DNA from: Bacteroidaceae bacterium
GTDB taxonomy: Bacteria; Bacteroidota; Bacteroidia; Bacteroidales; Bacteroidaceae
Direction of reading: 5' to 3'
NCBI GenBank assembly: GCA_024398595.1
Contig: JAKSIX010000001.1
Coordinates: 9,873 to 73,872 of the forward strand
Length of the DNA stretch: 64,000 nucleotides
The translations under genes were made by a program, and so were the position numbers. Shown here in pieces: positions 3,180 through 55,738 of this stretch. Every line of letters starts with the position of its first letter. Positions within the stretch are counted from its first letter, which is position 1. Below the pieces are notes generated by a model. It was not told where the DNA came from. It made no database searches and saw only the letters and a program-made list of their open reading frames with translations.

Positions 3180-5570
3180 CTACTCTATAAGGAACTTATA
3201 TCCGTCACTGATATTGATTCCCCTGCTGGGAGTGCTGATATGCTGACCTGCGACATTGTATATCATATCGCCCTTCCATGTATCCGCAGGAATGTCATCA
3301 ACAGCACTCTCCGAGTCTATCACGTATGCCTCAATACCGCTCTTCGGAGTCGGGGCTGAATAATACGTGTTGAAATACAGGATTTTCTTGGCTGAATCAT
3401 AATGGGAAGACTCAGCCGGCAGCTGATGTCTTTTCAAATCGCCTATCAATATAACACCGTCATCGCCTGACCGGAAGCCGCTATCCTGATCTATGAACTC
3501 CAACTTATCGTCTTCATTCCAGGCGAACACAAGTTCCGTATCGCCCTGCATCGGATATAATCTCCATAAATAAGGTCTTGATACATCCTGATAAAGTTTG
3601 ACATTACTGCGCGTCTGGTTCACATACGTCTTGTAATAGTAAGCACCTGTGTATTTTTCCTTCCATTCGTGATTCATGTCCAACATCAGGGCATCCATAC
3701 ACCCTGCATAGTAACCACCGGGATGCCCGGCCGATGAATATATCACATACAGGGACAATGCTCCAAGCCTCCCGTCATAGACGCACGGATAGTCCCGGTA
3801 TGTATAACCGTCACTGAAGGATGGGGCATCGCTTATTATTATCTCATCCGAACCATTCATACATCCTGTCGATTGTTTCGGAACCCGGCACGCACCCGTC
3901 CGCAGATTAACATCTACCATCAATGACGCACCGGTGAACACCCCGTCAATTTTAATCTGCGCCTTATCACTGTCCTTATCAGACACGCGCCACTGCACGC
4001 TCACTTCAGACGGGCCAAAAATGTAAAATCCGCTTGAGTACTTTCCTGTACCACATTCCATCGGCATCCATTCCGACCATTCCTGCGATGCAGACTTGTC
4101 TGTAATATGCGAGAACAGCGACCACGGCAAAACAGATGAATATATATCCACCTTACCTGCCGGCACGACCAACACTGTATTGGAATAGACTCTGTTATCA
4201 AACACCGAGACATCACAGTCCAATGGAGAATTCCAGTTTACAACCAATGTATCAAGTTCCGTACAGGAAGCAAAGGCATAGCCTGATAGCCTTGTTATTG
4301 CTGATGGCAGTTCAACCTTGCTCACAGAAGAATTCATGAAAGCACCGCATCCCACGGAAATGACATCATACCCGCCGGGAACGGTATCCGGAACCTTGAC
4401 GTTTCCGGAATAACCGGATGATGACCCTTCCGGATACGACAGCTCCGTACTGTTACTGTTCAAGTGATTGTAGTACAGTTCACCGTACTTGTACTTCTGC
4501 CTGTCAGGAACGATGTCACATATAATCCCCTGTTCATCGCGATATGAGTCTGAAAGGGCAGACAGGTAATAACCGTCATTTTTTCCTCCCCATCCGAAAC
4601 AGAAGTGAAAATATCCCTCCGAGTCAAATCCGTCACATACGAAAGCATGTCCGCCGTCATTGCCCTGACCTGTATATATTACGGGCTGGAATCTTGTCAA
4701 CTGCTGTCTCAGCACATCATCCCATTGGTCTGCATTGTATTTGTTCCTGTAAACAAGATTTGCTGATTTGTACCTGAAATAATTTTTCAAGGCCTTGGGA
4801 ACATCCAGTGCAATAGCCCCACTGCCTCCAAGGTCATAATCCATATTTACAGCGACTCCGCAGTCATACATAAAACTGGAGATGGCATTAGCCTCTTCAG
4901 GTGTAATATGATAGACCAGGTATTTGTCTTTCATCATTGCCCAATCGTATTCAGACTTGCTGAAATCTGACGACAAGGTCTGACCATTCCATTTGTAGGA
5001 GTGGCTGCCTGTGGGATTCAGAGGCCATCTGTAATAATACATCACTTCACCCATCGCAACGGCGACACAACCCACGAGACAATTCTCATCTTTCTTTGAT
5101 GATTCGTTATATTTCTTAGGTGTTTTATTGTGAAACGGATATGTCTGCACCCATCTTACCTGACCAAGCAAAGGATGTATCACAATATGGCGGCCACCTG
5201 CTCCATCTGCAGTACCTTGTGGAGCTCTCAGCCTGATATGTTCCTTTCGGGCCTGCTCTATCTGTTTCTGATACTGGCCGAGCCACCATCTGGCATTGTC
5301 AGGCAAATTATCATAATCGAATGTTCCATCATCGGAATAGCCTATCACTATCTGCTCCCCGTCATACTCATCGGCCGACAGAATGACATACCCCTGCCTG
5401 TCCGCTCTGTTGAACACGTAAAAATCACTGAGTCCGTCGGTTCTTGCAACATACGCAAGCTTGACATCACCTCCAAGAAACGATTTTGCGAACCCGTCTG
5501 ACACGATGAGCTGCGGCCGTACGCTAAGGCATAGCAGCAGACACGGGACAATGATCAGTAAACGTTTCAT
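3180..5570 (-). CDS. Secreted peptidase C10 (streptopain/SpeB-like cysteine protease) with a BspA-type leucine-rich-repeat region and a short C-terminal sorting-like tail
   Basis: Signal peptide MKRLLIIVPCLLLCL. Catalytic Cys context NCLVGCVAVAMGEVMYYY and His context DGGHAFVCDGFDSEGYFHFCFGWGG. LRR_5-like segment GCGAFMNSSVSKVELPSAITRLSGYAFASCTELDTL. Its start overlaps the upstream stop by 4 bp (ATGA). Confidence 0.8.
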   Translation of the reverse strand: MKRLLIIVPCLLLCLSVRPQLIVSDGFAKSFLGGDVKLAYVARTDGLSDFYVFNRADRQGYVILSADEYDGEQIVIGYSDDGTFDYDNLPDNARWWLGQYQKQIEQARKEHIRLRAPQGTADGAGGRHIVIHPLLGQVRWVQTYPFHNKTPKKYNESSKKDENCLVGCVAVAMGEVMYYYRWPLNPTGSHSYKWNGQTLSSDFSKSEYDWAMMKDKYLVYHITPEEANAISSFMYDCGVAVNMDYDLGGSGAIALDVPKALKNYFRYKSANLVYRNKYNADQWDDVLRQQLTRFQPVIYTGQGNDGGHAFVCDGFDSEGYFHFCFGWGGKNDGYYLSALSDSYRDEQGIICDIVPDRQKYKYGELYYNHLNSNSTELSYPEGSSSGYSGNVKVPDTVPGGYDVISVGCGAFMNSSVSKVELPSAITRLSGYAFASCTELDTLVVNWNSPLDCDVSVFDNRVYSNTVLVVPAGKVDIYSSVLPWSLFSHITDKSASQEWSEWMPMECGTGKYSSGFYIFGPSEVSVQWRVSDKDSDKAQIKIDGVFTGASLMVDVNLRTGACRVPKQSTGCMNGSDEIIISDAPSFSDGYTYRDYPCVYDGRLGALSLYVIYSSAGHPGGYYAGCMDALMLDMNHEWKEKYTGAYYYKTYVNQTRSNVKLYQDVSRPYLWRLYPMQGDTELVFAWNEDDKLEFIDQDSGFRSGDDGVILIGDLKRHQLPAESSHYDSAKKILYFNTYYSAPTPKSGIEAYVIDSESAVDDIPADTWKGDMIYNVAGQHISTPSRGINISDGYKFLIE

Positions 5571-7294
5571 TCAAACACTGTTTTATTTCCACCAACAATA
5601 TAAGCCTTACCCCTTGTAGGAAAATGCGGATGTCTGCCGGACATATCAACTACGTCACCGCCATTCCAATCAATCACATCGTCCTGGGCTATCATGCCGA
5701 CAGCTGATTCCACCTCGCCCTGAACAACAGGTATCTCCACTATCTTTCCGAAAAGTTCAAGTTCCACTGTTCCCTGCCGGCCCTTAATGCCTGCCGGCAG
5801 AGGTTCGCCGCCTATGAACACATTTATCTGGCCATACTCAATATATTCATCAGAAATTTTCTTTACACTTATCCAACTCTCGTCCTCATCCAGAAATACA
5901 TTCCAGTTCTTTGCGGAATCCAACGTCAGAATCGCATAATCCTCATACCATTTCTTTTCGACATCATCATATATGGTCATGGTCTTCCTGCCGTCTTCGG
6001 AGATACGCACCACTACATCCTTCATCTCATCTACCACCTCAGCAACCGGAAGTGCACCATAAAAAGATATGAAGAAGCTTGACCATGGATAATAACCGAA
6101 TGTCTCAAACGACCCGTCATCAAGCAAAGCGTACGCATTGCCATTATAGAATTTCTCATCGGCAAACGGGCAATACCATTTCGAACCAAGCCTGTCAAAT
6201 CCCGATATTACAACCATGTAATCATATTCCCCATCCAGAACTATTGGAGCCTCAGTATATTGGAAAATCGGATCATAATCCATGAATCTGAAATTCACCG
6301 AGCAATACACATCGTTATATTCGTTCCTGCTCAATGTTACGTCCTCATCAACAGCAAATGCCTCAGCTACGACAGTGAAGCCATTTTCATCAAATCTCTG
6401 CACACTGGCAAACAAGGTATCACCCTCCAACGGTTTCCTGTCACTGTATTTTCCACCGGCCTTGGAGAGTATCAGCTTTATGCTGACTGATTCCGCATAC
6501 AGCAAATCACCCGGAGCGGAGAAGTACTCGGCAAAACCTACACACTTCTTGCCGGTATTCATTACCCGAGTCTTACCGGATTCATCTTCAACAAAAATAG
6601 AGAAATCCGCATTTGACTCGTAGTTCAAGCCACTGCCATAACCGACCCAAATGGAATCCATCGGATTTGCATTCCCCAGATGTACAAGGCCCTCACTTCC
6701 TCCGCGCCATAACGGTCCGGAACCTTCCTCAACATCCTCAGTATCGGCGTGGTACTGATATGAGGCCAGAGCTTTTACGTGTTTTTTATCTTCAGGGGCA
6801 TACACGTGAATATATGGTGTATTCTTGATGCCAAACAGGGATTCATACAAATCTCCATACCTATTTACCACTCCGGGAGCCCTGATTTCCTTAGCTACCC
6901 CATCTTCATACACCATTTCCGTCCATTCCACACTATCCCTCAAGGCCAGTTTACCGTCCAGCATGGAACAATTCTGCCAGTACACCTCCACCATGCCGGG
7001 TGTATATACTCTACTGTTATTCCACGCCAGCCAGTCTTGGTCCATACCTTCAACAAATGCATTGTAAGGTCTGTCATACCAGGCCTCGGCTTCCGGTGCT
7101 GCAGTTCCTGCAAGCATCACTCTTTCAGCATACAGGGAACGGGACATCTGCGGAATACGCTCCACACGCATGGAATTGACATCAACCACATTGTTTATCT
7201 GAGATTCTGTCTTATACATTACCCTATTGAACTGCGCATGGACGGTCACAGTTCCGCATAACACCGCCAAAATAAAAAAGAACTTTCTTATCAT
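5567..7294 (-). CDS. Secreted hypothetical protein, possibly with a BACON-like domain near the C-terminus
   Basis: Long ORF with signal peptide MIRKFFFILAVLCGTVTVHAQ, translationally coupled to the C10 peptidase gene. No catalytic motif recognised. The segment WISVKK...GRQGTVELELFGKIVEIPVVQG resembles BACON domains. Confidence 0.5.
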   Translation of the reverse strand: MIRKFFFILAVLCGTVTVHAQFNRVMYKTESQINNVVDVNSMRVERIPQMSRSLYAERVMLAGTAAPEAEAWYDRPYNAFVEGMDQDWLAWNNSRVYTPGMVEVYWQNCSMLDGKLALRDSVEWTEMVYEDGVAKEIRAPGVVNRYGDLYESLFGIKNTPYIHVYAPEDKKHVKALASYQYHADTEDVEEGSGPLWRGGSEGLVHLGNANPMDSIWVGYGSGLNYESNADFSIFVEDESGKTRVMNTGKKCVGFAEYFSAPGDLLYAESVSIKLILSKAGGKYSDRKPLEGDTLFASVQRFDENGFTVVAEAFAVDEDVTLSRNEYNDVYCSVNFRFMDYDPIFQYTEAPIVLDGEYDYMVVISGFDRLGSKWYCPFADEKFYNGNAYALLDDGSFETFGYYPWSSFFISFYGALPVAEVVDEMKDVVVRISEDGRKTMTIYDDVEKKWYEDYAILTLDSAKNWNVFLDEDESWISVKKISDEYIEYGQINVFIGGEPLPAGIKGRQGTVELELFGKIVEIPVVQGEVESAVGMIAQDDVIDWNGGDVVDMSGRHPHFPTRGKAYIVGGNKTVFE

Positions 7295-7304
7295 ATACTA
7301 TCTG

Positions 7305-8657
7305 TCATTTTTCAATATCAAACCTGAACCAAATACTATCACCCGCCTGATTCCACTTGAGACTGTTCAGACAGAAACAGGATTTGACGCTGCAAATGGA
7401 ATAATCCCCCGCTACAGCTTTCAACAGTTCGTCAAAAGCCGTGAACACGGAAAGCACGCTCTCCGACTGACTGCCCACAGGGACAGGATTCTTCATACTC
7501 ACCACACCGGAACCAACTGAATAGTCATAATCATAGCGGACTTTTATTCTGGTGTTCCTGTTTTTCCGGAATGTGACATCCACACTCAGTATTGCATCTT
7601 CTGACTGCGCATCGTGAATAGTGCAGTACCACGACTCCAACTCATACTTATCCCTCTGTGCCGCCATCTGCGACAGCAGACGCTTGTATATACTGTACAG
7701 TTGCGCACACATTGCGTCCTCCGAGAGTTTCATTGACCATCCCAAGCCGTTTCTGACCGTTTCGTCAAAAAAAGCCACGGCATCAGGAGCCTTCAATGTC
7801 ACTTTCCCAAAGTTATCTCCAGCCGCAAAACAATTTCTGTCCGGATCAAACACAAGTTCCTGAACATCGTCCGCACCAAGATGCAGCACATCGCGGAAAC
7901 GCAGATGATACCCGTCTTTATGCAACGTAATCAGATATGGAGCACGTTTTTCATTGGCCACCGGGTCACCGTCCACAGGATAGATATTCGGTATTCCGCC
8001 ACTTATACTATCCACACGATACACGGCATTCCCGGTACTCAGCAGATTGTAATTCACTGCATCATACGGGAACAGCGAATCTTTGAACGCTTCTACCCCG
8101 TCTATATATCTCTCATGATTGCCTTCCGCCAGCTGGGACATCCTCACATACACGCCTCTTTTCTTGCCTTTCATCATAACAGAACGGGATTCTGTAGCAG
8201 TGTCTGCAAGCACGAACTCATAGTCACCACCCATTCCCGTACCAAGTTCCCGATACGACGGATCTGAAAAACGATGAAGACAGCTGTTATAAGTCGGAAA
8301 CGACAGCACCGGTCCGTTATCCTTTCTTATCTCCCATACAGAAGTGTCCCTGAGTGCTTTATAATCTGATGCACTGTTTTTCATAGTCATCACAGCCGAC
8401 CCGTCATTCATGAAATCAAGCACTATCAGATACCCTCTGCCGGTTGTATGATTCACCGAGTTGGTCGGATAATATTCCATCACCCATCCCTCCGGCGATG
8501 ATGTGAGATATGCAGAATAGTCAGACACAGCCCTGTCAATACGCTCGGCGGCAGTAAGCGTAAAAAGGCTGTCAACCTCGTGACTGCACGCAGCCGTAAT
8601 GGCGGAAACAATCAGGCAGACAAGCCAAGAACAGATGTTATTCCGATATTTTCCCAT
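7305..8657 (-). CDS. Lipoprotein, DUF4302-like (the usual partner of the SusCD-associated zinc metallohydrolase lipoprotein)
   Basis: Start trimmed to the ATG at 8657 (MGKYRNNICSWLVCLIVSAITAAC, with lipobox Cys). The family call rests on position downstream of the HEXXH lipoprotein and is made from memory. Confidence 0.5.
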   Translation of the reverse strand: MGKYRNNICSWLVCLIVSAITAACSHEVDSLFTLTAAERIDRAVSDYSAYLTSSPEGWVMEYYPTNSVNHTTGRGYLIVLDFMNDGSAVMTMKNSASDYKALRDTSVWEIRKDNGPVLSFPTYNSCLHRFSDPSYRELGTGMGGDYEFVLADTATESRSVMMKGKKRGVYVRMSQLAEGNHERYIDGVEAFKDSLFPYDAVNYNLLSTGNAVYRVDSISGGIPNIYPVDGDPVANEKRAPYLITLHKDGYHLRFRDVLHLGADDVQELVFDPDRNCFAAGDNFGKVTLKAPDAVAFFDETVRNGLGWSMKLSEDAMCAQLYSIYKRLLSQMAAQRDKYELESWYCTIHDAQSEDAILSVDVTFRKNRNTRIKVRYDYDYSVGSGVVSMKNPVPVGSQSESVLSVFTAFDELLKAVAGDYSICSVKSCFCLNSLKWNQAGDSIWFRFDIEK

Positions 8658-9891
8658 ATTCAAATACCTGATTACGAAGTTCCTGAAGCAGAGTCGTCCC
8701 GTCAGGACGGACAAAAGTGAGATTGTTTATAAAGCGGCCGCCGGCATCCAGCACAAAATCGCCGTTCCCATCAGTCAGCCACTGACGGTGCTGCACACCC
8801 ATACGGAGCTTATCCAGATTGACGTTGAAATAGCGCATCAGCCATTCCCTGACCATATTGAGTTTATGTTCTATAACCTGATTGCCTATTACACCCGATG
8901 TATGCAGATATACTATATTTCCATCGGCATCGGTAAGCGCGTATTTCCCGTCATCATCACGCATAATTGATTTCCTGACTATTCCGTATGTTAAAGCCTC
9001 ATCACCTGCAAGCGATGTCTTCTTCACGAAATAGCCCACAGAATCACGCACGGCCTCACCCCTTCCGACTTTTTCATTCAGCTGATTCCACCATGCAGCA
9101 TCCACATCATCAACATATTCCCACTGATATGAGGCTGTCCGCATCATACTGTTCCAACTGACCGTATCGGTCACGATATAGACAGCGGTCAGCTCGACCC
9201 AATCCTCTGCAGCTTGGGACGATGCGTATGGCGAAATGAATCCCTGGCTTAACGCCACAGAGTCTGGTGTGGCACTCCAGCTGACAGAATTGTATTTACC
9301 ATTCGATATACGGTCAAAGTCCGCAGGACGGTTGACATTCTGATTGAGTATATGTCCGAACTCATGATGCATAGTCTTGAAAAAGTACCGGTTCATATAC
9401 TCTATATTGTCCGGAGACAGATGTTCTGCATTGTACAGGGTAATCTTGATTCCACCCTCTGCCGTACCAAGCACCTCTGTACCCTGCACAGGATTGTAGG
9501 CAGGAGAGCCTATGACGTGAATTATTCTCGGACTGTACTTCTTGAGGAAGACCTCGCCATCCGGCACACTGTCACGATACACGTCATACCACAGATACTT
9601 GCAGAGTACAGCCAGCGACACGCTTTTATCGTAAGAGCAAGGCACGAGATTGTATTGCATATCCGAAGCAATGTCCTCCATCCTGTAAAGGAAACGCATA
9701 TTGTACGGTTCCAGAAAATTACGGACACAGAACGTATCCAAGGCGAAAGTGTAGCTTTTCCTGTCAAGAGGCCGCTTCTCCGTATCAAATATGGAGGGGC
9801 CGAAACTGTCGTTTCCACACGATATTACACACAGCAGCGTCAAGACTGCGGCAAGTCGGACTATATATCGCGATACGTTTCCCATCATCAT
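8638..9891 (-). CDS. Substrate-import-associated zinc metallohydrolase lipoprotein (HEXXH)
   Basis: Lipoprotein signal LTLLCVISCGN. Zinc-binding motif MHHEFGHILNQ. Located immediately downstream of SusD. Confidence 0.75.
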   Translation of the reverse strand: MMMGNVSRYIVRLAAVLTLLCVISCGNDSFGPSIFDTEKRPLDRKSYTFALDTFCVRNFLEPYNMRFLYRMEDIASDMQYNLVPCSYDKSVSLAVLCKYLWYDVYRDSVPDGEVFLKKYSPRIIHVIGSPAYNPVQGTEVLGTAEGGIKITLYNAEHLSPDNIEYMNRYFFKTMHHEFGHILNQNVNRPADFDRISNGKYNSVSWSATPDSVALSQGFISPYASSQAAEDWVELTAVYIVTDTVSWNSMMRTASYQWEYVDDVDAAWWNQLNEKVGRGEAVRDSVGYFVKKTSLAGDEALTYGIVRKSIMRDDDGKYALTDADGNIVYLHTSGVIGNQVIEHKLNMVREWLMRYFNVNLDKLRMGVQHRQWLTDGNGDFVLDAGGRFINNLTFVRPDGTTLLQELRNQVFEYGKISE

Positions 9892-9895
9892 TTTC

Positions 9896-11659
9896 CTATT
9901 CGTTTTCTACTTTGATTTTACCACACAGTCCTGTCATCCTCCGGCTCTGCACATTGTGGCTTACCTGTGACGGAGTCAAGTACGATGACGCCATTCCAGC
10001 CGCAAGCACATCCTGCGGGACCTCAATGGCGCGACGGGGATCGTTCCACTTCAATTTATACGCTGTTCCTTCTGCATTCCAGATATGTGTATATTCTATT
10101 CCAAAACGTTTCAGGTCAAAGAAACGGAGTCCGGTATAGGCAGTCTCATATCTGCGCATATCGTTCAGGCAGTTCATATAGGGATACAGGTCTTTCGGAA
10201 TATTGAAACCCAGACTCATGGAATCCGTAGTCGTCCAATCGGCTATGACATTGCTTTTGCCTGGCGTGGAATACCAGCGTTCAATCATGCTTTCCGTCAA
10301 CGGGCGCAATGCTCCGCCTGAAGTATAGAAGTCCAGATTTGACTTGGAGAATGACTGACGGCTGTTCTCGTACGCAATCAGATCCTCTGCGCAACCCTTC
10401 TTGTCGTGATTCCCGAGAAGTCTGGCTTCAGCCCTTTCCAGAAGCAGTTCCGTACAGGTAAACTCACGGCGCACAATATGCGCATAGCCTATTCCGGCAA
10501 TCTTGTCAGTATATTCAAATCTCTCGGCAATACGCGCACTGGTAAAGCCGTGGTCGGCATTTCCATCATAGAACGTACCTCCGCCGACACTTGCGGCGGG
10601 CATAAGGAACCAGTCCCAGTTAGGCCCGTAATGATACTCTATATCCTTCAATGCCTTACCGGCAGTTGCATAACGGTATCCTATATGTCGCCTGAACTGG
10701 ACGGAATATGTAGCTATCAGCATCAGATTATTCTCAGAGTCAGGATTCTGCCAAGCCTCTGCGAAATCTTCGGATGTCACACAGTCATCAAAGACGGAAT
10801 AATCCATAAGGACAGATGGCAATACGGAAGCATCCCGTCCGAGAACTGCATCCGCATGTTCAATGACTTTGTCATACTCACGCCGGAAAAGATAGAAACG
10901 TGCGGCAAAGGCGTGTGCCGCCTTGACATTGAAATGCCACTTTGGCTTCTCGTAATTGACATCGCTTATCAGGTCAAGCCCTCTCTCCAAGTCACTTTCA
11001 ATCCTGTCGTATGTATCAGTTACGTTACTGCGGTCATAATCCACCATAACCACATCCTCGGGAGTCATACAGTATGGTATTCCAATGTCATTACGGCTTG
11101 CATTGTCATCCTTGTATGCTTGGGAGAACACATTGACCAGTATGAAATGGTGATAGGCCCTGATCAGATACAGTTCCGCGTAGGCGGCCCTCATCTTTTC
11201 TGAAGTATCCTCCACCGGCACGTTTCCACGCAATCCGTCCAGAATCTGAAACGCATGGTTTGCTGTGGCAATCGCGTGGTAGCACCCCTCCCATATCTCT
11301 GACGGGGAGTCAGTGCCATTGGAAGACTTGACAGGCTCGAATCTGTAGGCCTCGCCGTCCATACGCTCATACTCCCGGAGATTGTAGCGCACCGGCACCT
11401 CACGTCCATCATCCTGAGTTGCCATATATGGAGCATTTATATCAATGATATTGTCACTTGACAGCTCACACAGCCATCCATAGTTTCCTGTAGAATATGC
11501 GGAACCTGCCAACTGTATTACCTGACTGAGTGTAGTAACCTCAACACGTTCATCAGGCGACTCGTCAAGGAATCTGTCTGCACACCCGTTCAAACCGACA
11601 GCCAGCATCAGGCCAATCACAAAATCCGGCAAACGCAGTTTCTTCATATCACCAATCAT
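9896..11659 (-). CDS. RagB/SusD family nutrient-uptake outer membrane lipoprotein
   Basis: Follows SusC with an ATGA overlap; an alternative start MKKL lies at 11647. Lipobox LNGCADRF. About 580 aa, with a helical TPR-like composition typical of SusD. Confidence 0.85.
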   Translation of the reverse strand: MIGDMKKLRLPDFVIGLMLAVGLNGCADRFLDESPDERVEVTTLSQVIQLAGSAYSTGNYGWLCELSSDNIIDINAPYMATQDDGREVPVRYNLREYERMDGEAYRFEPVKSSNGTDSPSEIWEGCYHAIATANHAFQILDGLRGNVPVEDTSEKMRAAYAELYLIRAYHHFILVNVFSQAYKDDNASRNDIGIPYCMTPEDVVMVDYDRSNVTDTYDRIESDLERGLDLISDVNYEKPKWHFNVKAAHAFAARFYLFRREYDKVIEHADAVLGRDASVLPSVLMDYSVFDDCVTSEDFAEAWQNPDSENNLMLIATYSVQFRRHIGYRYATAGKALKDIEYHYGPNWDWFLMPAASVGGGTFYDGNADHGFTSARIAERFEYTDKIAGIGYAHIVRREFTCTELLLERAEARLLGNHDKKGCAEDLIAYENSRQSFSKSNLDFYTSGGALRPLTESMIERWYSTPGKSNVIADWTTTDSMSLGFNIPKDLYPYMNCLNDMRRYETAYTGLRFFDLKRFGIEYTHIWNAEGTAYKLKWNDPRRAIEVPQDVLAAGMASSYLTPSQVSHNVQSRRMTGLCGKIKVENE

Positions 11660-28496: not shown

Positions 28497-28504
28497 TATC
28501 TTTG
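28497..28504 (+). promoter_or_regulatory. Candidate -7 box (TAnnTTTG) for the fused ABC importer gene
   Basis: TATCTTTG lies 22 nt upstream of the ATG at 28526. Confidence 0.4.
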
Positions 28505-28525: not shown

Positions 28526-31276
28526 ATGCGTAATCTGAAATTCATACTCCTCCCGATGATAATGTTCCTCGCACAGCCTTGCGCTGCAGCGGAAAAAACC
28601 GGTCTGTGGGGCAAACTGAGAGAGTCATTCTACAGTAACCTGATATTGGAGAACCGCTACATGCTGATTCTGGACGGATTGAAGACCACTCTGATAATCA
28701 CGCTTTTTGCCGTAATACTCGGCACGCTGCTGGCAGGTCTGATATGCTGGATGCGTATGAGCCGTAACAAATGGCTGTCCGGCTTCGCCAGATCATATAT
28801 TTTCATAGTACGCGGCACACCTGTACTGGTGCTGCTTATGATTATGTTCTATGTAGTTCTGGCATCATCCAATGCATCGGGAGTACTCGTATCCATCATC
28901 ACCTTCGCACTCAACTCCGCCGCATACTTCGCCGAAATGATGCGCACCAGCATACAGAGCATTGAGAAAGGCCAGACCGAAGCCGGTCTCTCACTCGGTC
29001 TCACCAAGACACAGACCTTCATGCACATTGTCCTTCCTCAGGCGGCACGCAATGTCATTCCCGTATACATAGGTGAGGTCATCAGCCTCCTGAAAGGTAC
29101 AGCCATAGTCGGATACGTAGCCGTCATCGATATGACCAAGGCTTCGGACATAATCAGGGCACGCACATTCGATGCATTCTTCCCCCTACTGCTTACCGCC
29201 GGCATCTACCTGCTGCTCTCGTGGCTCATTATCATCTTGCTCCGATACGCCACCGGAGCGGACAGCCAGTCCCCGCAGAAAGGCAATGAAACCTTTGCCA
29301 AAGTTTTGTCCATTCTGATGATGGTATCGGTATTCACCTCGTGTGAGAGCCGGACTGGAAACGCGGAAATCACCTGCAAGGAAGACCTCAAAGGGAAGAA
29401 AGTCGGAGCATTGATGGGTGCATATTACGAAAGTATGCTCTCCGACACATACGGCACAAACAATGTAATGCTGTTCAACAATTACCCTGACGCATACGAA
29501 GCCTTGCGGAAAAAGAAACTTGCAGGTTTCTATGATGATGACGCAATGGCAATCAATGTCCTGCGGAAATACAGGGAGTTTGACACAATATCCGCCGGTA
29601 TGCCAATACTCCCTGTCGGTGCCGGATTCCACAAAGACAGTGTGGAGCTGAGTTCCCTTTTCCGGAATTTCATAGAAGAGTTCAAGGGCAGCCCGGAAGA
29701 ACAGGAAATGCACGAACGGTGGTATAACCACCCTGTTGAGGAATGTCACAGGGATATTGAAGCAATCAAATACGGCAAGCCCATATTGGTAGCCACACTT
29801 GCCAGCGTACCTCCATTCTCATTTATGTCCGACGGTGAATTGGACGGATACGAAATTGAGCTGACACGGAGATTCGCACTATGGGCAGGAAGACCTGTAG
29901 AATTTGTCACAATGGATTTCAACGCCGTTATTTCAAGCCTCATATCCGGCCGCATAGATATGTTCATGACACTCACAAACATCACGGAAGAACGGTTGAA
30001 AAGAATATCGATGGTCCAGTATATGGAGAGCCACCTGATTATTTTCATCAATACCGCCACTGATGAGAGCAAAGGCAATGCAGGTGCCACAGCCATATCC
30101 ATCATTGCACTTCTGGCAATAGCAGGTTGTATTGTCATATTCCAGACAAGGAAACGGCATAAAAGACATATACCGGCAGACCACGGCAATGACAATGATA
30201 CGATTGTCAGCATATCACACTTGCGGAAAATATACGAAGACGGAGTCACGGTTTTGAAAGACGTCAGCGCAGAAATACGGAAAGGTGAAGTGATTTCAAT
30301 AATCGGTCCGTCCGGCACAGGCAAGAGTACGTTGCTGAGATGTCTGAATCTTCTCGGCAAGCCGACGGCAGGCAGCATTCTGATAAACGGTGAAGACATT
30401 CTGGCTTCTGATGCCGATGTACCGTTGCTGAGACAGAGAATGGGAATGGTATTCCAGTCGTTCAATCTGTTCAATGGCAAGACGATACTTGACAACGTCA
30501 CACTGGCACCCGTACTTCTTGGCAGGAAAACCAAGGAAGAGGCTGAGACAAAAGCGATGGAACTGCTGAAAATGGTAGGTATGGCAAACAAGGCTTACTC
30601 ATATCCGGAGCAATTGTCCGGAGGTCAGAAACAGCGTGTCGCCATTGCCCGTGCATTGGCAATGGAACCTGAGATACTGCTGTTCGATGAGCCTACATCG
30701 GCACTTGACCCGACAATGGTAAGCGAAGTCCTCGGAGTAATCCGCACATTGGCACGCAAGGGTATGACAATGATGATTGTCACTCACGAAATGAGTTTTG
30801 CACGTGAGGTGAGCAGCCGTATTTTCTATATGGACGAGGGTACTATCTACGAGGACGGCACTCCCGAGCAGATATTTGACAATCCGCAACGCGAGAAGAC
30901 ACGCATATTCATAAACAGGATTAGGGAATGCCGGTATGAGATAACGGAGAGCCACAACGACTACTATGGAATGATGGGCAAGATTTACAATTTCTGCGTA
31001 CGCTACAATATGTCATCGCAGGAGATTGACCACATTACACATACAGTCGAGGAAGGTCTGCTGCTTCTCGGCACAAAAGACGGAACAAAAGTCGTGATAA
31101 CCCATTCCGAGAAGACAGCTGCCAAACAGGTATGCATCTCTACGCCGTGCAGAATCGAGGCAACCATACTCGACAATAGCGAGAATGCCATTCAGGCCTC
31201 CATCCTGCGTGGATTCTGCAAAACAGTCAGAATAGAGAGCGGAGACCGGGAGAGTCAGCTTATCTGCGAAATATGA
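28526..31276 (+). CDS. Single-chain polar amino acid ABC importer: permease, TM, substrate-binding domain, TM, ATPase, uncharacterised C-terminal domain
   Basis: One uninterrupted 916-aa frame. His/Glu/Gln/Arg-type permease (aa ~40-245; SIEKGQTEAGLSLGLTKTQTFMHIVLPQA). SBP_bac_3-like domain (aa ~285-510). TM helix (aa ~521-540). NBD with Walker A GPSGTGKST, signature LSGGQKQR, Walker B LLFDEPTSALD and H-loop VTHEM. About 119 extra C-terminal residues. Confidence 0.8.
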   Translation: MRNLKFILLPMIMFLAQPCAAAEKTGLWGKLRESFYSNLILENRYMLILDGLKTTLIITLFAVILGTLLAGLICWMRMSRNKWLSGFARSYIFIVRGTPVLVLLMIMFYVVLASSNASGVLVSIITFALNSAAYFAEMMRTSIQSIEKGQTEAGLSLGLTKTQTFMHIVLPQAARNVIPVYIGEVISLLKGTAIVGYVAVIDMTKASDIIRARTFDAFFPLLLTAGIYLLLSWLIIILLRYATGADSQSPQKGNETFAKVLSILMMVSVFTSCESRTGNAEITCKEDLKGKKVGALMGAYYESMLSDTYGTNNVMLFNNYPDAYEALRKKKLAGFYDDDAMAINVLRKYREFDTISAGMPILPVGAGFHKDSVELSSLFRNFIEEFKGSPEEQEMHERWYNHPVEECHRDIEAIKYGKPILVATLASVPPFSFMSDGELDGYEIELTRRFALWAGRPVEFVTMDFNAVISSLISGRIDMFMTLTNITEERLKRISMVQYMESHLIIFINTATDESKGNAGATAISIIALLAIAGCIVIFQTRKRHKRHIPADHGNDNDTIVSISHLRKIYEDGVTVLKDVSAEIRKGEVISIIGPSGTGKSTLLRCLNLLGKPTAGSILINGEDILASDADVPLLRQRMGMVFQSFNLFNGKTILDNVTLAPVLLGRKTKEEAETKAMELLKMVGMANKAYSYPEQLSGGQKQRVAIARALAMEPEILLFDEPTSALDPTMVSEVLGVIRTLARKGMTMMIVTHEMSFAREVSSRIFYMDEGTIYEDGTPEQIFDNPQREKTRIFINRIRECRYEITESHNDYYGMMGKIYNFCVRYNMSSQEIDHITHTVEEGLLLLGTKDGTKVVITHSEKTAAKQVCISTPCRIEATILDNSENAIQASILRGFCKTVRIESGDRESQLICEI

Positions 31277-31962
31277 CGCTTGATGCGGATTGAATTTATG
31301 ATTCGCCCGCATTCCGTTCCTTCGCGCCTCGCCGAGTAGAACCTCACGTCCCCGTAAGTGCAGATGTCGCAGGAGTGAATGTTTTCAGGTCTGACACCTG
31401 ACATTTCCAACAGCCACCTGTTTGCCCGAATCAGATCGATGTGATGGCCTCCTCTCATAGTGCCCGGAACGGGCTCACCGTCATACTGCCAGATTTCATC
31501 CATTGGGAAGCCGCTATCCCTGAACATATCGGCGACCTCCTCTCCTACCTGGAAACTGCGTCTGCTGATGCCGGGGCCTATCACTGCAATCAGGGCTGAA
31601 GCGTCTGTCCCGAAAGCATCGCCCATAGTCAGAACGGTATGCCGTGATATTCTGCGCACCGTCCCCTTCCATCCTGAATGCACGGCCGCTACAGCCTCAT
31701 GCTGCGGGTCATACAACAGGACCGGAATGCAGTCCGCCGTCCTCACCCCTATCGCGCAGCCTTTCAGATTGGTAATAAAGGCATCATACCCCTCCAAGTC
31801 CTCACGGGTCAGGTCTGGCCTGTCTATGACCGCCACTCTGACATCATGAACCTGATGTCCGCAGATTACATTATACGGCAGCTGCGCATCGCGCATTGTG
31901 GAGAACGCTTCCACCCCATCGCCTAACGAATGATACAGCAGACCGTCCGATACCAATTCCAT
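31255..31962 (-). CDS. pgeF: Laccase-domain / polyphenol oxidase family protein (YfiH/PgeF peptidoglycan editing factor)
   Basis: Motifs TADCIPVLLYD, AAVHSGWKGT and CDICTYGDVRFYSARRE. Its 3' end overlaps the convergent ABC gene by 22 bp. Confidence 0.8.
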   Translation of the reverse strand: MELVSDGLLYHSLGDGVEAFSTMRDAQLPYNVICGHQVHDVRVAVIDRPDLTREDLEGYDAFITNLKGCAIGVRTADCIPVLLYDPQHEAVAAVHSGWKGTVRRISRHTVLTMGDAFGTDASALIAVIGPGISRRSFQVGEEVADMFRDSGFPMDEIWQYDGEPVPGTMRGGHHIDLIRANRWLLEMSGVRPENIHSCDICTYGDVRFYSARREGTECGRIINSIRIKRHISQIS

Positions 31963-32001: not shown

Positions 32002-32775
32002 TCATAGACAGCGGCATTTCTTCATTTCCAGTACGGTCTCAAACCTCTCCCCATCGCTGTCTTCCCGCAACGCCGTCCATATCATCTTCTCATCATTGCA
32101 CACTTCTATGTCCCACCATTCCCTGTACTGGACTCCATCCTTAATCCATCTGAAACAGAGCACGTCCCCTGCCACATAGAACAGGTTCTCCGTGTTCAGC
32201 GGGTCGGCCTCCCACACACCGGCGGCATTCTTCGTGTAATAGACATACGTTCCATCCTCAAGAAACTCCCATCTGTGCTCCGCTGCGCCATAGGTCTCAG
32301 GCCCCGTCAGTTTTACGCCTTCCCACAGTCCGAGAATCGCTTGTGAATAATCGCCGGACACTCTCTCCATCTCCCCGATTCCTTCATTTTCCGTACCAGG
32401 AATATCAGACATAGTCTGCAAGGTCACAGCTCTGCCATCATGGAATGACACCAGACATTCAGACGAGAAATTCCGGGCATAGTGCATAGTCAGCTTATTC
32501 CCGGATACGGTATAACTGCCGACTTCGCCACAGAACCACAAACCGTTCGTGAATATTGTATATACGTATTTCCCATCCGGGAGATACTCGTTGATAGCCC
32601 TTTCGTTTGTAAGGCAAAGTTCATCCCCCAGGGAATATGTTTTCCACATACCCAAAATGCTCTCCTTCAAATATTCTTCCTCTTCATTCACTTCCGAGCA
32701 GCCGATGACCGCATTCATCGCCGCAATCATAAAAACTGATATTGCCAAACGGCAAGTGTTCTTTAAAATCCTCAT
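32002..32775 (-). CDS. Lipoprotein with two lipocalin-like repeats, function unknown
   Basis: Signal/lipobox AAMNAVIGCSE. Duplicated ILGMWKT... / ILGLWEGV... modules typical of lipocalin-like (DUF-type) Bacteroidales lipoproteins. Confidence 0.55.
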   Translation of the reverse strand: MRILKNTCRLAISVFMIAAMNAVIGCSEVNEEEEYLKESILGMWKTYSLGDELCLTNERAINEYLPDGKYVYTIFTNGLWFCGEVGSYTVSGNKLTMHYARNFSSECLVSFHDGRAVTLQTMSDIPGTENEGIGEMERVSGDYSQAILGLWEGVKLTGPETYGAAEHRWEFLEDGTYVYYTKNAAGVWEADPLNTENLFYVAGDVLCFRWIKDGVQYREWWDIEVCNDEKMIWTALREDSDGERFETVLEMKKCRCL

Positions 32776-33742: not shown

Positions 33743-34651
33743 TCAATTTTTAAGAAAATGCAGCTCCACAGATCTCATACGTAGGATTCTGGCTATCCGG
33801 TTTACAGATGCGTTAGTCTTTTTCTTCAAATGAACTGCAATTATCCTCTTCTGTTCTTTGGTTAATTGATTCAACTGGTTGACACTGAACTTTGTCGCAG
33901 CTATGTTTGATGCCTCCGAAACCAATTCATCGTCACTAAATTTCAAGTGCACTTCAACGTATCTTGCTTCTTCAGAGGCGGACTTCGTCATCAGAATTGA
34001 ACGGAAGAAATCAGTCTTGCTGCCGAATATCAATTCTACGGATTCAAAATCGACAAACGACTTGAGAAGCAGATTATTCTGATTATCAATCACAAAGCCT
34101 GATTGTTTGAGGTCGTGTCTCGTTCTCAGTGCTGTTCTAATCTGTCGCACCGGCAATGAAGACAGAGCCACTTCGCCATAATCAGTAGAAATGCCGCCGA
34201 AATATACATTGAATGAAGACCATTGGTAATCCTCAGGACGACTTACGACGTGCGGAACAACAGGATTCATCAGTACATATGAAATGCAATTCCGCAAGTA
34301 ATACAAATCATCAATCTCTTTAGGCTTTGCATTTACATCGCGATAAATCATTGACATACCATGCTCTAAGTACATATATCTGCCATAATCACGTTTGAAT
34401 CCAATGGCAAACATTCGCGCTTGAGCAAATGTTTTGCACCTGATAACAAAGTGCGAATGAGAGGACATATGGCAGAAGCATAGTATTTTTACTCCTGTCA
34501 CATAGGCCGTAATTGCACTAATTATAGTTGATTGCCTGTAATCAGCAACACTTGTGTGCACTATACCGTTTGACAGCCCATCAGTACACACGTGAAAGAA
34601 CAATTCAGATTTTGAAATTTCAATAGGGATAGGATGTTTTTCCATAAGCAT
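33743..34651 (-). CDS. HUH/Y1 transposase-like protein (IS200-like/COG1943, REP-associated tyrosine transposase type) with a C-terminal DnaA-like HTH
   Basis: HUH-type motif CFCHMSSHSHFVIRC. Tyrosine-motif region YYLRNCISYVLMNPVVPHVVSRPEDYQWSS, which matches the pattern Y..NP......P.dY.WSS. C-terminal KEQKRIIAVHLKKKTNASVNRIARILRMRSVEL resembles the DnaA C-terminal HTH. Flanked by palindrome clusters. Confidence 0.7.
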   Translation of the reverse strand: MLMEKHPIPIEISKSELFFHVCTDGLSNGIVHTSVADYRQSTIISAITAYVTGVKILCFCHMSSHSHFVIRCKTFAQARMFAIGFKRDYGRYMYLEHGMSMIYRDVNAKPKEIDDLYYLRNCISYVLMNPVVPHVVSRPEDYQWSSFNVYFGGISTDYGEVALSSLPVRQIRTALRTRHDLKQSGFVIDNQNNLLLKSFVDFESVELIFGSKTDFFRSILMTKSASEEARYVEVHLKFSDDELVSEASNIAATKFSVNQLNQLTKEQKRIIAVHLKKKTNASVNRIARILRMRSVELHFLKN

Positions 34652-53479: not shown

Positions 53480-54406
53480 ATGGATACGATTCTTAAAATT
53501 GAAAATGTCTCAAAGACCTATACCGGCCACAAGGCACTGGATAATGTCTCTATGGAGATTGGGCGGGGCACCATCTACGGGTTGCTCGGTCCGAACGGTG
53601 CGGGCAAATCCACACTGATACGCATCATCAACAGAATCACATTGCCGGACTGCGGCAAGGTGATGCTGAACGGACATGAGATTACAACTGAGGACATTAT
53701 GAAAATCGGTTACCTGCCGGAAGAGCGTGGACTGTACAAGAAGATGCGTGTGGGTGAACAGGCGGTATTCTTCGCACGTCTGAAAGGACTGGACAGGACG
53801 ACTGCACGTAAAAGACTGATGGATTGGTTTGAGCGTCTGTCCATCACAGACTGGTGGGACAAGAAAATAGAAGACCTCTCCAAGGGCATGGCTCAGAAAG
53901 TACAGTTTATATGCACAGTAATCCATCAGCCCGAACTGCTTATCTTCGATGAGCCGTTCTCCGGATTTGACCCTATCAACGCAGATTTGCTTAAGCGTGA
54001 GATACTCAGGCTTCGCGATAACGGCGCAACCGTTATTTTCTCAACCCACAATATGGAATCCGTTGAGGAAATCTGTGACAGTATGACCTTAATCAACAAA
54101 TCAAGGAACATTCTGTCCGGCTCAGTAGAAGAGATAAGGCGCAAGGCAGGTGCCAACATCTTCCAGATTGTTTTCAGTGACATGACCCGCCCGCTTGCCG
54201 AAATCACAGGCAATAAGGCCGAATGCATAGGAGAATCCGAGAGCATTATCGGAGGGTTCACCCAGCAGAAAATCCACATCGCCTCCGATGATGATGTTCA
54301 CGATGTCATAGCAGCTGTCAATGACAATTGCCGCCTCCGTTCATTCCAGGAGATCGTTCCTACAATGAACGACATATTCATCCGTGCCGTCAATGATCAA
54401 TTGTAA
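53480..54406 (+). CDS. ABC transporter ATP-binding protein (ABC-2/NatA-like)
   Basis: Walker A GPNGAGKST, signature LSKGMAQKV and Walker B LLIFDEPFSGFD. Confidence 0.85.
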   Translation: MDTILKIENVSKTYTGHKALDNVSMEIGRGTIYGLLGPNGAGKSTLIRIINRITLPDCGKVMLNGHEITTEDIMKIGYLPEERGLYKKMRVGEQAVFFARLKGLDRTTARKRLMDWFERLSITDWWDKKIEDLSKGMAQKVQFICTVIHQPELLIFDEPFSGFDPINADLLKREILRLRDNGATVIFSTHNMESVEEICDSMTLINKSRNILSGSVEEIRRKAGANIFQIVFSDMTRPLAEITGNKAECIGESESIIGGFTQQKIHIASDDDVHDVIAAVNDNCRLRSFQEIVPTMNDIFIRAVNDQL

Positions 54407-54451
54407 ACAACTCAAGTTCCGCATGAGAAACTTGAATAAATACATACTATT

Positions 54452-55738
54452 ATGAGTAGAATTGGAATTATCATATCACGTGAGTTCAAGGAGAGGGTTC
54501 AGAAGAAATCCTTCATTATTATGACAATACTCACACCTGTCCTTATGATAGCACTCGGTGCCGCACCCACCCTGATGATGCTGCACAGCACAGGTGACGC
54601 AAAACAGATAGTCGTCGTAGACGATACCGAAGGCGCTTTCGTAGGCCGCGCTCTGAAATCAGGGTCACTCGTCAGTTTCCAATTGTTGGAAAACATGACC
54701 AGACAGGAAGCTATCGTGGCATATAGTGACGAGGACAAAGCCTTCGGTATCCTGTGGGTAGGCCGGGACTTTGTCAGACATCCGGACAATGTCAAGCTTA
54801 TCACCAACACATCATCCTCCGTGATGATTGAGGAAGAGATATCCGGCCAGTTGTCCGACATACTGAAAGTGGCAAGACTCCACGAATACAATATCGACAA
54901 CATTGAGCAGATTCTTGCCGATGCAGATGTAAAGGTATCGCTTGCGACAATGAAGAATGACGGCAGCGGAGACGACGGGAATATGGAACAGATGTCATCG
55001 GATATAGCGACAATGATAAGTCTGGTATTCGGAATGATGCTCTACATGTTCATCATAATCTACGGCCAGCAGGTTCTGGCCAGTGTCATCGAAGAGAAGC
55101 AGAGCCGCGTACTTGACGTAATGGTCACCTCCTGCACACCGTTTGAGATGATGATGGGCAAGATTCTTGGAATAGCAGCCGTAGCGGCCGTACAGGTGGC
55201 CATCTGGTGTGTGCTGATATCATTCGCAAGCCAATTCCTCATACCGATGATTCCTATGGAGGAGATGGAGAACCCTGCATTCGCATCTACCATATCCACG
55301 ACATTCGGAGATATATTCTACATACTGAAGCTGTTTGCAATGCTGCTGCTCTACATCATAGGAGGATTCCTGCTTTATGCCTCACTGTTCGCCGCTGCAG
55401 GCTCGGCTGTTGATGTGAATCAGGACGCGCAGCAGTTCAACACGATAATTATGCTGCCGATAATACTCGGACTCATCGTGATGATGTCTGTATTCAATGA
55501 CCCGAACTCACCCATGGCACTGTGGTTCTCGATAATACCGTTCACCTCACCTATAGTGATGATGGCACGTATTCCGTTCGACATACCATTCTGGCAGATT
55601 GCCGTATCACTGACAACACTGTACGCATCTTTCATCCTATCCACCTGGATAGCGGCAAGGATTTACAGAATCGGAATATTCATGCACGGCAAGAAACCGT
55701 CCTGGAAGGATCTCGGTTCGTGGCTCAGAACAAAATAA
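54452..55738 (+). CDS. ABC-2 type transporter permease (NatB-like)
   Basis: N-terminal TM, a large extracytoplasmic loop and then a cluster of 5 TMs. Follows the ATPase gene. Confidence 0.72.
   Translation: MSRIGIIISREFKERVQKKSFIIMTILTPVLMIALGAAPTLMMLHSTGDAKQIVVVDDTEGAFVGRALKSGSLVSFQLLENMTRQEAIVAYSDEDKAFGILWVGRDFVRHPDNVKLITNTSSSVMIEEEISGQLSDILKVARLHEYNIDNIEQILADADVKVSLATMKNDGSGDDGNMEQMSSDIATMISLVFGMMLYMFIIIYGQQVLASVIEEKQSRVLDVMVTSCTPFEMMMGKILGIAAVAAVQVAIWCVLISFASQFLIPMIPMEEMENPAFASTISTTFGDIFYILKLFAMLLLYIIGGFLLYASLFAAAGSAVDVNQDAQQFNTIIMLPIILGLIVMMSVFNDPNSPMALWFSIIPFTSPIVMMARIPFDIPFWQIAVSLTTLYASFILSTWIAARIYRIGIFMHGKKPSWKDLGSWLRTK

Follow-up and report, generated by a model that had tools for sequence, protein, structure and literature searches.

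We analysed a 64-kb stretch of Bacteroidaceae DNA (part of contig JAKSIX010000001.1; the window, below, means this whole stretch) and found that one of its genes encodes the permease, the binding domain (receptor) and the ATPase of a type I ATP-binding cassette (ABC) importer in a single chain. The open reading frame (ORF) lies on the plus strand at 28526..31276 (stop codon included), starts with ATG and runs uninterrupted for 916 residues, exactly as a reading made from the sequence alone (the sequence-only reading) had stated. Every element listed in that reading was found at its place by Pfam, NCBIfam and hydropathy. We call the gene and its product the query.

The chain begins with a signal-peptide-like leader (residues 1-22, 28526..28591), recognised by hydropathy and by an AxA-type signal peptidase I site, MRNLKFILLPMIMFLAQPCAAA followed by E. 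The permease (residues 41-245, 28646..29260) is of the five-transmembrane-helix type I importer kind (BPD_transp_1) with its EAA loop at E152-G158. Residues 246-273 (29261..29344) comprise a predicted cytoplasmic spacer and a segment that resembles a lipoprotein signal peptide, with K258, the h-region VLSILMMVSVFTS and the lipobox F-T-S-C273. Residues 274-285 (29345..29380), delimited by column counts across the family, form the putative periplasmic tether on the N-side of the receptor. The receptor has the C-terminal half of a class F binding domain placed first (residues 286-405, 29381..29740; canonical residues ~103-232), then a connector between the ancestral C- and N-termini that is fixed in length in the family (residues 406-419, 29741..29782), and then the N-terminal half with the invariant R490 (residues 420-516, 29783..30073; canonical ~12-107). 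By hydropathy, a return transmembrane helix follows (residues 519-543, 30080..30154), and after it a basic patch, TRKRHKRH. A complete ABC ATPase of the ArtP/GlnQ/TcyN type, identified by Pfam, NCBIfam and structure match, occupies residues 559-797 (30200..30916). The remaining residues, 798-916 (30917..31273), make up a family-specific C-terminal domain (the tail) with a predicted SpoIIAB/RsbW-like (GHKL) fold and degenerate motifs. All of these features are on the plus strand. The hydropathy profile showed the leader at 4-22, five core transmembrane segments, a weak segment at ~259-275 and a strong transmembrane segment at 521-539.

Modules and family spread

The permease matched Pfam BPD_transp_1 at residues 64-241 (74 bits against a cut-off of 26). 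The ATPase matched ABC_tran at residues 577-725, and NCBIfam models matched the whole nucleotide-binding domain (residues 561-799), the best being of the TcyN/EhuA/GlnQ/HisP type. It is 54-56% identical to ArtP/ArtN, its model superposes at a TM-score of ~0.95, and a fold search with the full-length model returned ATPases only. The EAA-loop residues E152, A153, G154, L155 and G158 were invariant in 83/83 sequences, as were the key residues of the Walker A and B motifs, Q-loop, LSGGQ motif and H-switch. This invariance of the catalytic motifs and the EAA loop implies selection for an active transporter.

We compared the query to its best 120 matches in a collection of 5.8 billion proteins (40-92% identity). 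All 120 hold the three Pfam domains in one chain, which supports the genuine evolved fusion argued for in the sequence-only reading. Only a few of these homologues had names, either 'ABC transporter permease subunit' or 'polar amino acid transport system substrate-binding protein'. We also scanned genomes, one per species, for the permease motif. At least 515 genomes were positive, and 80 loci from independent assemblies were kept. Nearly all untruncated cases among the 80 have the same domain order within one stop-to-stop ORF. Both junctions between the modules are conserved in homologues that are 45-92% identical and in the isolate genomes L016 and L056, which rules out frameshifts hidden there. 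All taxonomically labelled loci were from Bacteroidales (one title reads only 'uncultured bacterium') and included Prevotellaceae, with the cultured Xylanibacter ruminicola KHT3 and Ga6B6, Bacteroidaceae, Rikenellaceae and Paludibacteraceae. Most of the 80 came from rumen and horse faeces.

The arrangement of the query, permease-one receptor-ATPase-tail, was found in 84 of the 120 homologues. Two receptors were present in ~27/120 and three in 3/120; one homologue has receptors on both sides of the permease, and three have the receptor(s) N-terminal to a directly fused permease-ATPase. A two-gene version with a separate ATPase was found at three genome loci (L030, L063 and L071). Such modular variation (one to three receptors, N-terminal receptors, split ATPase) is typical of working tethered-receptor importers.

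Two family members can lie close together. In L063, from a metagenome-assembled genome of Paludibacteraceae, the split version occupies 4761-7419, and a second member, with its receptor at the N-terminus, lies ~1.5 kb downstream of it, at 8953-10458. The pair L061/L073 shares contig JAFPGC010000027, and P0038/P0056 are on one 186,797-bp contig.

The 119-residue tail, which the sequence-only reading had listed as the last element, proved to be real, conserved and confidently folded. It had no sequence match in Pfam (to E = 10) or, by phmmer, in the PDB. In 1.84 billion proteins it matched only 23 representative clusters, nearly all of them the family itself or fragments. A hidden Markov model of the tail was positive in 118/120 homologues, at 67/70 genome loci and in the separate ATPase of the split variants. 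Modelled alone, the tail had a predicted local distance difference test (pLDDT) score of 91 and a predicted template modelling (pTM) score of 0.84, with the order beta-alpha-alpha-beta-beta-alpha-beta-beta. The only convincing Foldseek matches to this model were SpoIIAB, RsbW, UsfX and SiaB (E <= 0.011, probability 1.0), at TM-scores of 0.6-0.66 and 8-12% identity. A comparison by hhalign of the tail profile to a SpoIIAB sequence gave a probability of 2.5%, that is, no sequence-level support.

Tail residues T5, F8, D25 and F36 were invariant and I9, I12, Y27, E56, S74 and E75 nearly so. None of these columns is a conserved Asn or Gly, and the N-box, the G1 box (DxGxG) and the G2 box were not conserved. 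Without the conserved Asn, DxGxG and G2 glycines, ATP binding and kinase activity are unlikely, and we read the modelled tail as a degenerate GHKL-fold domain that would not bind ATP. Like the C-terminal domains of MetN, MalK, ModC and OpuAA, it may serve as a dimerisation or regulatory module.

One other candidate relative of the tail, the TRAP/MtrB beta-hairpin, gave a marginal local profile match (E ~1e-3, residues ~847-890). This match is probably due to chance, because the confident tail model has a different fold. The alignment pairs ..GxxRGTxxKFHHSEK.. with ..GxxxGTxVxxSYSEK.., and SEK is near-invariant in the family. Only one tail-bearing protein was found outside the family context, the 544-residue metagenomic P0123, and it is most likely a chimeric assembly. 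It consists of a lipoprotein leader, an Epimerase_2 fragment, CotH and the tail.

A permuted receptor between two membrane segments

The sequence-only reading placed an SBP_bac_3-type binding domain at about residues 285-510. A domain of this type is present, but it spans residues ~279-516 and is circularly permuted, with the C-terminal half ahead of the N-terminal half. Because of the permutation, Pfam SBP_bac_3 matched only residues 421-513, to the start of its profile (positions 2-95). By comparison to PDB structures, residues ~279-404 correspond to canonical class F residues ~103-232 and residues ~423-516 to ~12-107. The sole collinear match in the PDB was to the tandem substrate-binding domains (SBDs) of GlnP, SBD1-SBD2 (6h30, residues 97-334), and it crosses the boundary between the two domains. 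The same order of halves was found in every receptor of every family member (120 homologues mapped). The connector is constant in length in the family (20 residues between W399 and I420) and was modelled by AlphaFold with pLDDT ~86-91; the whole binding domain was modelled as one unit with pLDDT ~76-94.

In relatives with two receptors, the N-terminal half of the first and the C-terminal half of the second form a continuous domain in canonical order (residues 404-610 of P0004 against GlnH 15-220). This makes each array a tandem repeat whose register is offset by half a domain. The query is the minimal [C-half][N-half] form, as predicted by the duplication-and-truncation route to circular permutation. 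The new termini are in the hinge region, at canonical residues ~103-107, so that the chain enters and leaves the domain at a single place, which suits insertion between two membrane segments. The permutation is not strictly required for insertion, because the receptors of the split and N-terminal-receptor variants are permuted too.

The Arg that binds the substrate backbone (alpha-carboxylate), R490, was invariant in 83/83 sequences; its position relative to GlnH is a guide only. Pfam PF10613 (Lig_chan-Glu_bd) also scored in many homologues. A search for free-standing permuted receptors with the N-terminal receptor of P0098 (its first 275 residues) found none at E <= 1e-5. This search also missed P0098 itself, which suggests a limitation of the word index for that query and not a true absence of relatives. 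No ORF for a permuted receptor lacking a permease was present within 5 kb of the 80 genome loci.

The sequence-only reading had also argued that the two extra membrane segments are where topology requires them, one leading out to the receptor and one leading back to the ATPase. The two-gene variants confirm this argument and are its strongest and cleanest support. In L030, L063 and L071, the first ORF encodes permease, linker and receptor and ends directly after the receptor, with no further transmembrane helix. The second ORF encodes the ATPase and tail from its own Met start. Thus, the return helix occurs only where the ATPase is fused. Each linker segment has a basic patch on the side predicted to be cytoplasmic. 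Identity in the linkers was 6-20%, compared to 69-73% in the permease and ATPase, and the junction design was kept despite this drift. The tethers have median lengths of 14 and 16 residues in the family and are ~11-13 residues long in the query, in which the Cys273 and D287 columns are 13 residues apart (family median 14).

We found that the first linker segment is hydrophobic, as expected of the transmembrane segment that the sequence-only reading put there, but that it looks like an internal lipoprotein signal peptide. At residues 259-272 it is shorter and by hydropathy weaker than a normal transmembrane helix, and AlphaFold pLDDT was < 50 at residues 246-273. The layout of this junction (junction 1) is a basic patch after the permease, a short hydrophobic run, and then [S/G/A]-Cys, corresponding to K258-VLSILMMVSVFTS-C273 in the query. 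A lipobox-like [SGA]-Cys follows the hydrophobic run in 95 of 116 permease-first members (~82%), and a strict lipoprotein pattern ends in the junction-1 linker in 66/117 members, compared to 0.6% of shuffled linkers. The median length of the h-region was 15 residues (interquartile range 14-17) in members with the Cys and 20 residues (18-22) in those without it (p = 8e-10). That is, the group with the Cys has h-regions of signal-peptide length and the Cys-less group has the length of a transmembrane helix. In relatives whose receptors are N-terminal, the same motif is part of an ordinary lipoprotein signal peptide at the start of the protein.

An N-terminal lipobox leader was found in none of the 96 members with the internal Cys and in 9 of 21 without it (Fisher p = 3.6e-8). 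Since the nine reciprocal cases probably belong to a single clade, this statistic represents few independent events. The nine have a leader such as ...LTGC ahead of the permease (P0091, P0094, P0097, P0100, P0103, P0105, P0108, P0110 and P0113); the group is Prevotella-type, and P0091 is from Prevotella sp. Rep29.

Junction 1 has the basic n-region, the h-region of 7-22 residues and the lipobox Cys of a lipoprotein precursor. Such precursors have these parts at the N-terminus, whereas here they are internal, after a five-helix domain. The descent of the segment from a lipoprotein signal peptide is clear. With a lipobox at Cys273, cleavage into two chains is possible. The earlier description of the importer as one polypeptide thus holds for the reading frame but possibly for the primary translation product only.

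Gene start and surroundings

Our results support the start of the 916-residue product. The sequence TAnnTTTG is the -7 promoter consensus of Bacteroidetes. A match to it, TATCTTTG (28497..28504, plus strand), is 21 nt upstream of the ATG and is the only one in the 299-nt spacer (0.18 expected from shuffles). An equivalent sequence, TATATTTG, is 19 nt upstream of the same Met in L081, a 92%-identical relative, and it is this agreement between the two that supports the shorter product. In the database, the gene call for the closest relative, P0001 (L081 6001-6060, 92% identical), begins 20 codons upstream of the conserved MRNLKF Met. The resulting length of 936 residues is probably an over-extension through the likely -7 motif.

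The leader noted in the sequence-only reading is present in the query, but ~71% of the homologues with the same architecture are without one. The leader recurs, with the motif C-x-A-A before E, in the close relatives P0003 and P0028, and P0001 has C-P-A-A before E. From these sequences, the leader may be cleaved at the AxA-type site.

The neighbouring genes are housekeeping genes: a divergent uvrA, a convergent YfiH-like gene and, further on, PFOR, with the same synteny in L081. The ORF and the convergent YfiH/PgeF-like gene (Cu-oxidase_4; 31255-31962, minus strand) overlap by 22 nt at their 3' ends (31255-31276), an arrangement also present in L081. No other gene for an importer permease or binding protein was found in the 64-kb window or beside the homologues, and the chain must therefore supply every module. 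The only other ATPase matches in the window were UvrA and a DrrA-type ABC-2 exporter pair (53480-55738, plus strand), in which a DrrA-like ATPase with DrrA1-3_C is followed by an ABC2_membrane_3 permease. There was no Rfam element anywhere in the window.

Two other ORFs downstream, both on the minus strand, had little or no similarity to Pfam families. A 257-residue ORF (32002-32775) has a hydrophobic N-terminus ending in a lipobox-like AVIGC and a sub-threshold match to the lipocalin-like PF13648 (E = 0.0018). A 302-residue ORF (33743-34651) had no Pfam match at E = 0.01; its 'HSHFVI' stretch recalls the HUH motif of IS200/IS605-type or REP-associated transposases.

Proposed mechanism, alternatives and known systems

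We consider it likely that the gene product is a self-contained type I importer that works as a homodimer, and that its substrate is a polar amino acid or something closely derived from one. With one chain translated and two chains paired, the pump would have two copies each of the permease domain, the tethered receptor and the ATPase. The leader would place the N-terminus outside, the five transmembrane helices would finish in the cytoplasm, and the signal-peptide-like segment (residues 258-273) would take the chain outward again. The permuted receptor would be held in the periplasm by two tethers of ~11-13 residues that leave from its hinge region. The helix at 519-543 would bring the chain back to the cytoplasm, where a linker of ~18 residues would lead to the ATPase and the ATPase would engage the EAA coupling loop. 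If the cycle resembles those of Art(QN)2, GlnPQ and OpuA, the tethered receptor would capture substrate and dock on the permease dimer, and docking would trigger ATP-dependent closure of the ATPase dimer and release of substrate inward. The pseudo-GHKL tails would probably lie as a pair below the ATPases and have a regulatory or dimerising role, as in MetN, MalK and ModC.

Several observations weigh against this proposal. The NCBIfam scores of the ATPase are below all equivalog cut-offs (e.g., 283 against 406 bits for TcyN; 277 against 379 for another), and because no cut-off was reached the substrate cannot be named. The Asp expected to bind the alpha-ammonium group, D338, is not invariant (D/E in 67/83, again with its position relative to GlnH as a guide only). 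Both linker transmembrane segments had low pLDDT. The tethers leave the receptor on its hinge side and have only ~11-13 residues each, and docking uses the cleft side. Last, the lipobox suggests that the chain may not stay intact.

This last point is the basis of the main alternative, which we regard as possible, if doubtful, and in which the gene encodes a polyprotein. After translation of the whole chain, Lgt would lipidate Cys273 and signal peptidase II would cut before it, giving a six-helix permease (residues ~23-272) and a lipid-anchored receptor-transmembrane helix-ATPase (residues 273-916) in a 2:2 assembly. The fusion would then serve stoichiometry and co-assembly, and transport would otherwise occur as in the intact importer. 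The frequent lipobox-like motif and strict pattern at junction 1 and its h-region of signal-peptide length are consistent with this, as are the genuine lipoprotein signal peptides of the N-terminal-receptor relatives, the mutual exclusion of internal lipobox and N-terminal lipobox leader, and the low pLDDT of the segment, which is not predicted to pack against the core. However, the Cys is absent in 18% of members, the exclusion represents few independent events, and the Cys could be left over from the fusion of a lipoprotein gene, or lipidation could occur there with no cleavage. To our knowledge, there is no precedent for Lgt or LspA acting on a signal peptide behind five transmembrane helices, and none for an internal signal peptide was found in the open-access literature, which also counts against a polyprotein. 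If cleavage does occur, it would be the first case of processing of an internal site by the lipoprotein pathway to yield stoichiometric transporter subunits.

The hinge-side tethers could also mean that the receptor cannot dock cleft-down and instead works as a gate or regulator, its ligand-induced closure pulling on the flanking helices, as on the linkers of ionotropic glutamate receptors, to gate or activate the permease. In glutamate receptors, the channel splits the ligand-binding domain at roughly this hinge position. The new termini at canonical residues ~103-107, the PF10613 matches in many homologues and the short tethers of the query (11-13 residues) all fit with gating of this kind. 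We nonetheless think it improbable: relatives with serial, N-terminal or free-C-terminus receptors could not use pulling from two points, yet they have the same permuted domain, and the tether lengths are within the range of GlnPQ (PMC8025302). It seems about equally improbable that the protein is mainly a sensor, with the tail as a partner-switching module from an anti-sigma-factor kinase that reports extracellular amino acids or flux to a sigma- or STAS-type partner, and with transport secondary or lost. The only structural relatives of the tail are indeed SpoIIAB, RsbW, UsfX and SiaB, the tail is strictly family-specific and universal in the family, and a by-eye alignment with SpoIIAB places the helix with the near-invariant E56 at the N-box. 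But there is no sequence-level relation to these proteins (by hhalign or Pfam), the Asn, G1 and G2 boxes are not conserved, and no sigma, anti-sigma or STAS gene is adjacent at the query locus or in L081. In addition, the invariant ATPase and coupling motifs favour real transport, and importer ATPases often have regulatory C-terminal domains without a signalling role. An error in sequencing or assembly that merged separate permease, binding-protein and ATPase genes has next to no chance of being the explanation. A separate ATPase gene does exist in three relatives, but these differ exactly as expected, with no return helix and with their own Met. We reject an artefact since the three domains are together in all 120 homologues and in a single ORF in most of the 80 assemblies, with conserved junctions.

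The importer that we propose would be of use for several reasons. Type I ABC importers are textbook multi-subunit machines, and this would be the same machine in one chain: a natural single-gene importer in which the subunit ratio is fixed at 1:1:1 and the receptor is always tethered. The same construct could be used for cryo-electron microscopy, single-molecule Förster resonance energy transfer and synthetic-biology transplantation. The series of split, fused, one-to-three-receptor and N-terminal-receptor forms provides material for the study of fusion, of permutation by register-shifted duplication and of recruitment of topogenic helices. The internal lipobox, if used, would widen the known substrate range of the lipoprotein pathway, and the tail would be a new fold among ABC regulatory domains. 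Prevotellaceae and Bacteroidaceae of the rumen and hindgut, habitats in which the economy of amino acids and ammonia bears on host nutrition, commonly have members of this family, which the annotation 'ABC transporter permease subunit' conceals.

Fusions of receptor to permease and, in exporters, of permease to ATPase are described in reviews; three-subunit fusions occur occasionally in prokaryotic transporters, and no receptor-containing triple fusion is described (PMC3971661). The hyphenated 'SBD-TMD-NBD' (TMD, transmembrane domain; NBD, nucleotide-binding domain) in an inventory of C. difficile ABC systems refers to gene order and not to a fusion. In open-access full texts we found no importer with all three modules in one chain, in agreement with the sequence-only reading, whose author knew of no characterised TMD-SBD-NBD importer. 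The same texts held no permuted class F receptor, no transporter-internal lipobox and no GHKL-like tail on an ABC ATPase. The query combines four unusual features in a family that is widespread and effectively unannotated.

Among known systems, importers of the Art(QN)2/HisQMP2/GlnPQ type (PAAT, TC 3.A.1.3) have, like the query, a five-helix BPD_transp_1 permease with an EAA loop and a class F receptor with a carboxylate-binding Arg. The permease of Art(QN)2 is homodimeric and works by an alternating-access cycle, presumably as in the query. In contrast to these systems, the query has all modules in one frame and a permuted receptor between permease and ATPase, and it adds two membrane segments and a C-terminal domain. 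GlnPQ of Lactococcus lactis (SBD1-SBD2-TMD plus a separate GlnQ; 6h30) resembles the query family in that one to several receptors are covalently tethered, and the tether lengths of the family match the GlnPQ linkers of 14 and 19 residues (PMC8025302). The receptors of GlnP are N-terminal, in canonical order and on a single tether, and the ATPase is a separate protein. Those of the query family form an array shifted by half a domain, C-terminal to the permease, anchored at both ends and running into the ATPase. The query has the receptor-permease fusion of tethered-receptor importers, but the separate ATPase subunit that also defines them is present only in L030, L063 and L071.

Natural circular permutation in a membrane-tethered binding protein has a precedent in TpMglB-2 (Tp0684) of Treponema pallidum, a naturally permuted lipoprotein receptor for which the authors suggest an adaptation to anchoring (PMC4990184). 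TpMglB-2 has a Type I/cluster B sugar-binding fold with another permutation point and is a free-standing lipoprotein. The query domain is class F and not 'Type Ic/Cluster Bc', and is analogous, not homologous, to TpMglB-2. The tail model matches the small dimeric regulatory modules SpoIIAB, RsbW and UsfX over its whole length; unlike them, the tail is fused to an ABC ATPase and is shorter (119 residues compared to ~135-145). In GluR0 and the ionotropic glutamate receptors (S1-channel-S2), a class F-like clamshell is joined to membrane helices at what is probably a similar hinge position. That clamshell is interrupted by a channel, whereas the clamshell of the query is permuted and flanked by single transporter helices.

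OpuA of L. lactis has a TMD-SBD protein, OpuABC, joined through a signal-anchor helix, and an ATPase with CBS domains, OpuAA. OpuA is like the query in its order of permease, anchor helix and receptor, and it is homodimeric with a C-terminal regulatory module on the ATPase, as the query would be. OpuA differs in the class of its substrate-binding protein and in permease family, and has an unpermuted receptor, no return helix and no ATPase fusion; its regulatory module is CBS, whereas that of the query would be GHKL-like. The organisation of the two-gene variants in L030, L063 and L071 is exactly that of OpuA.

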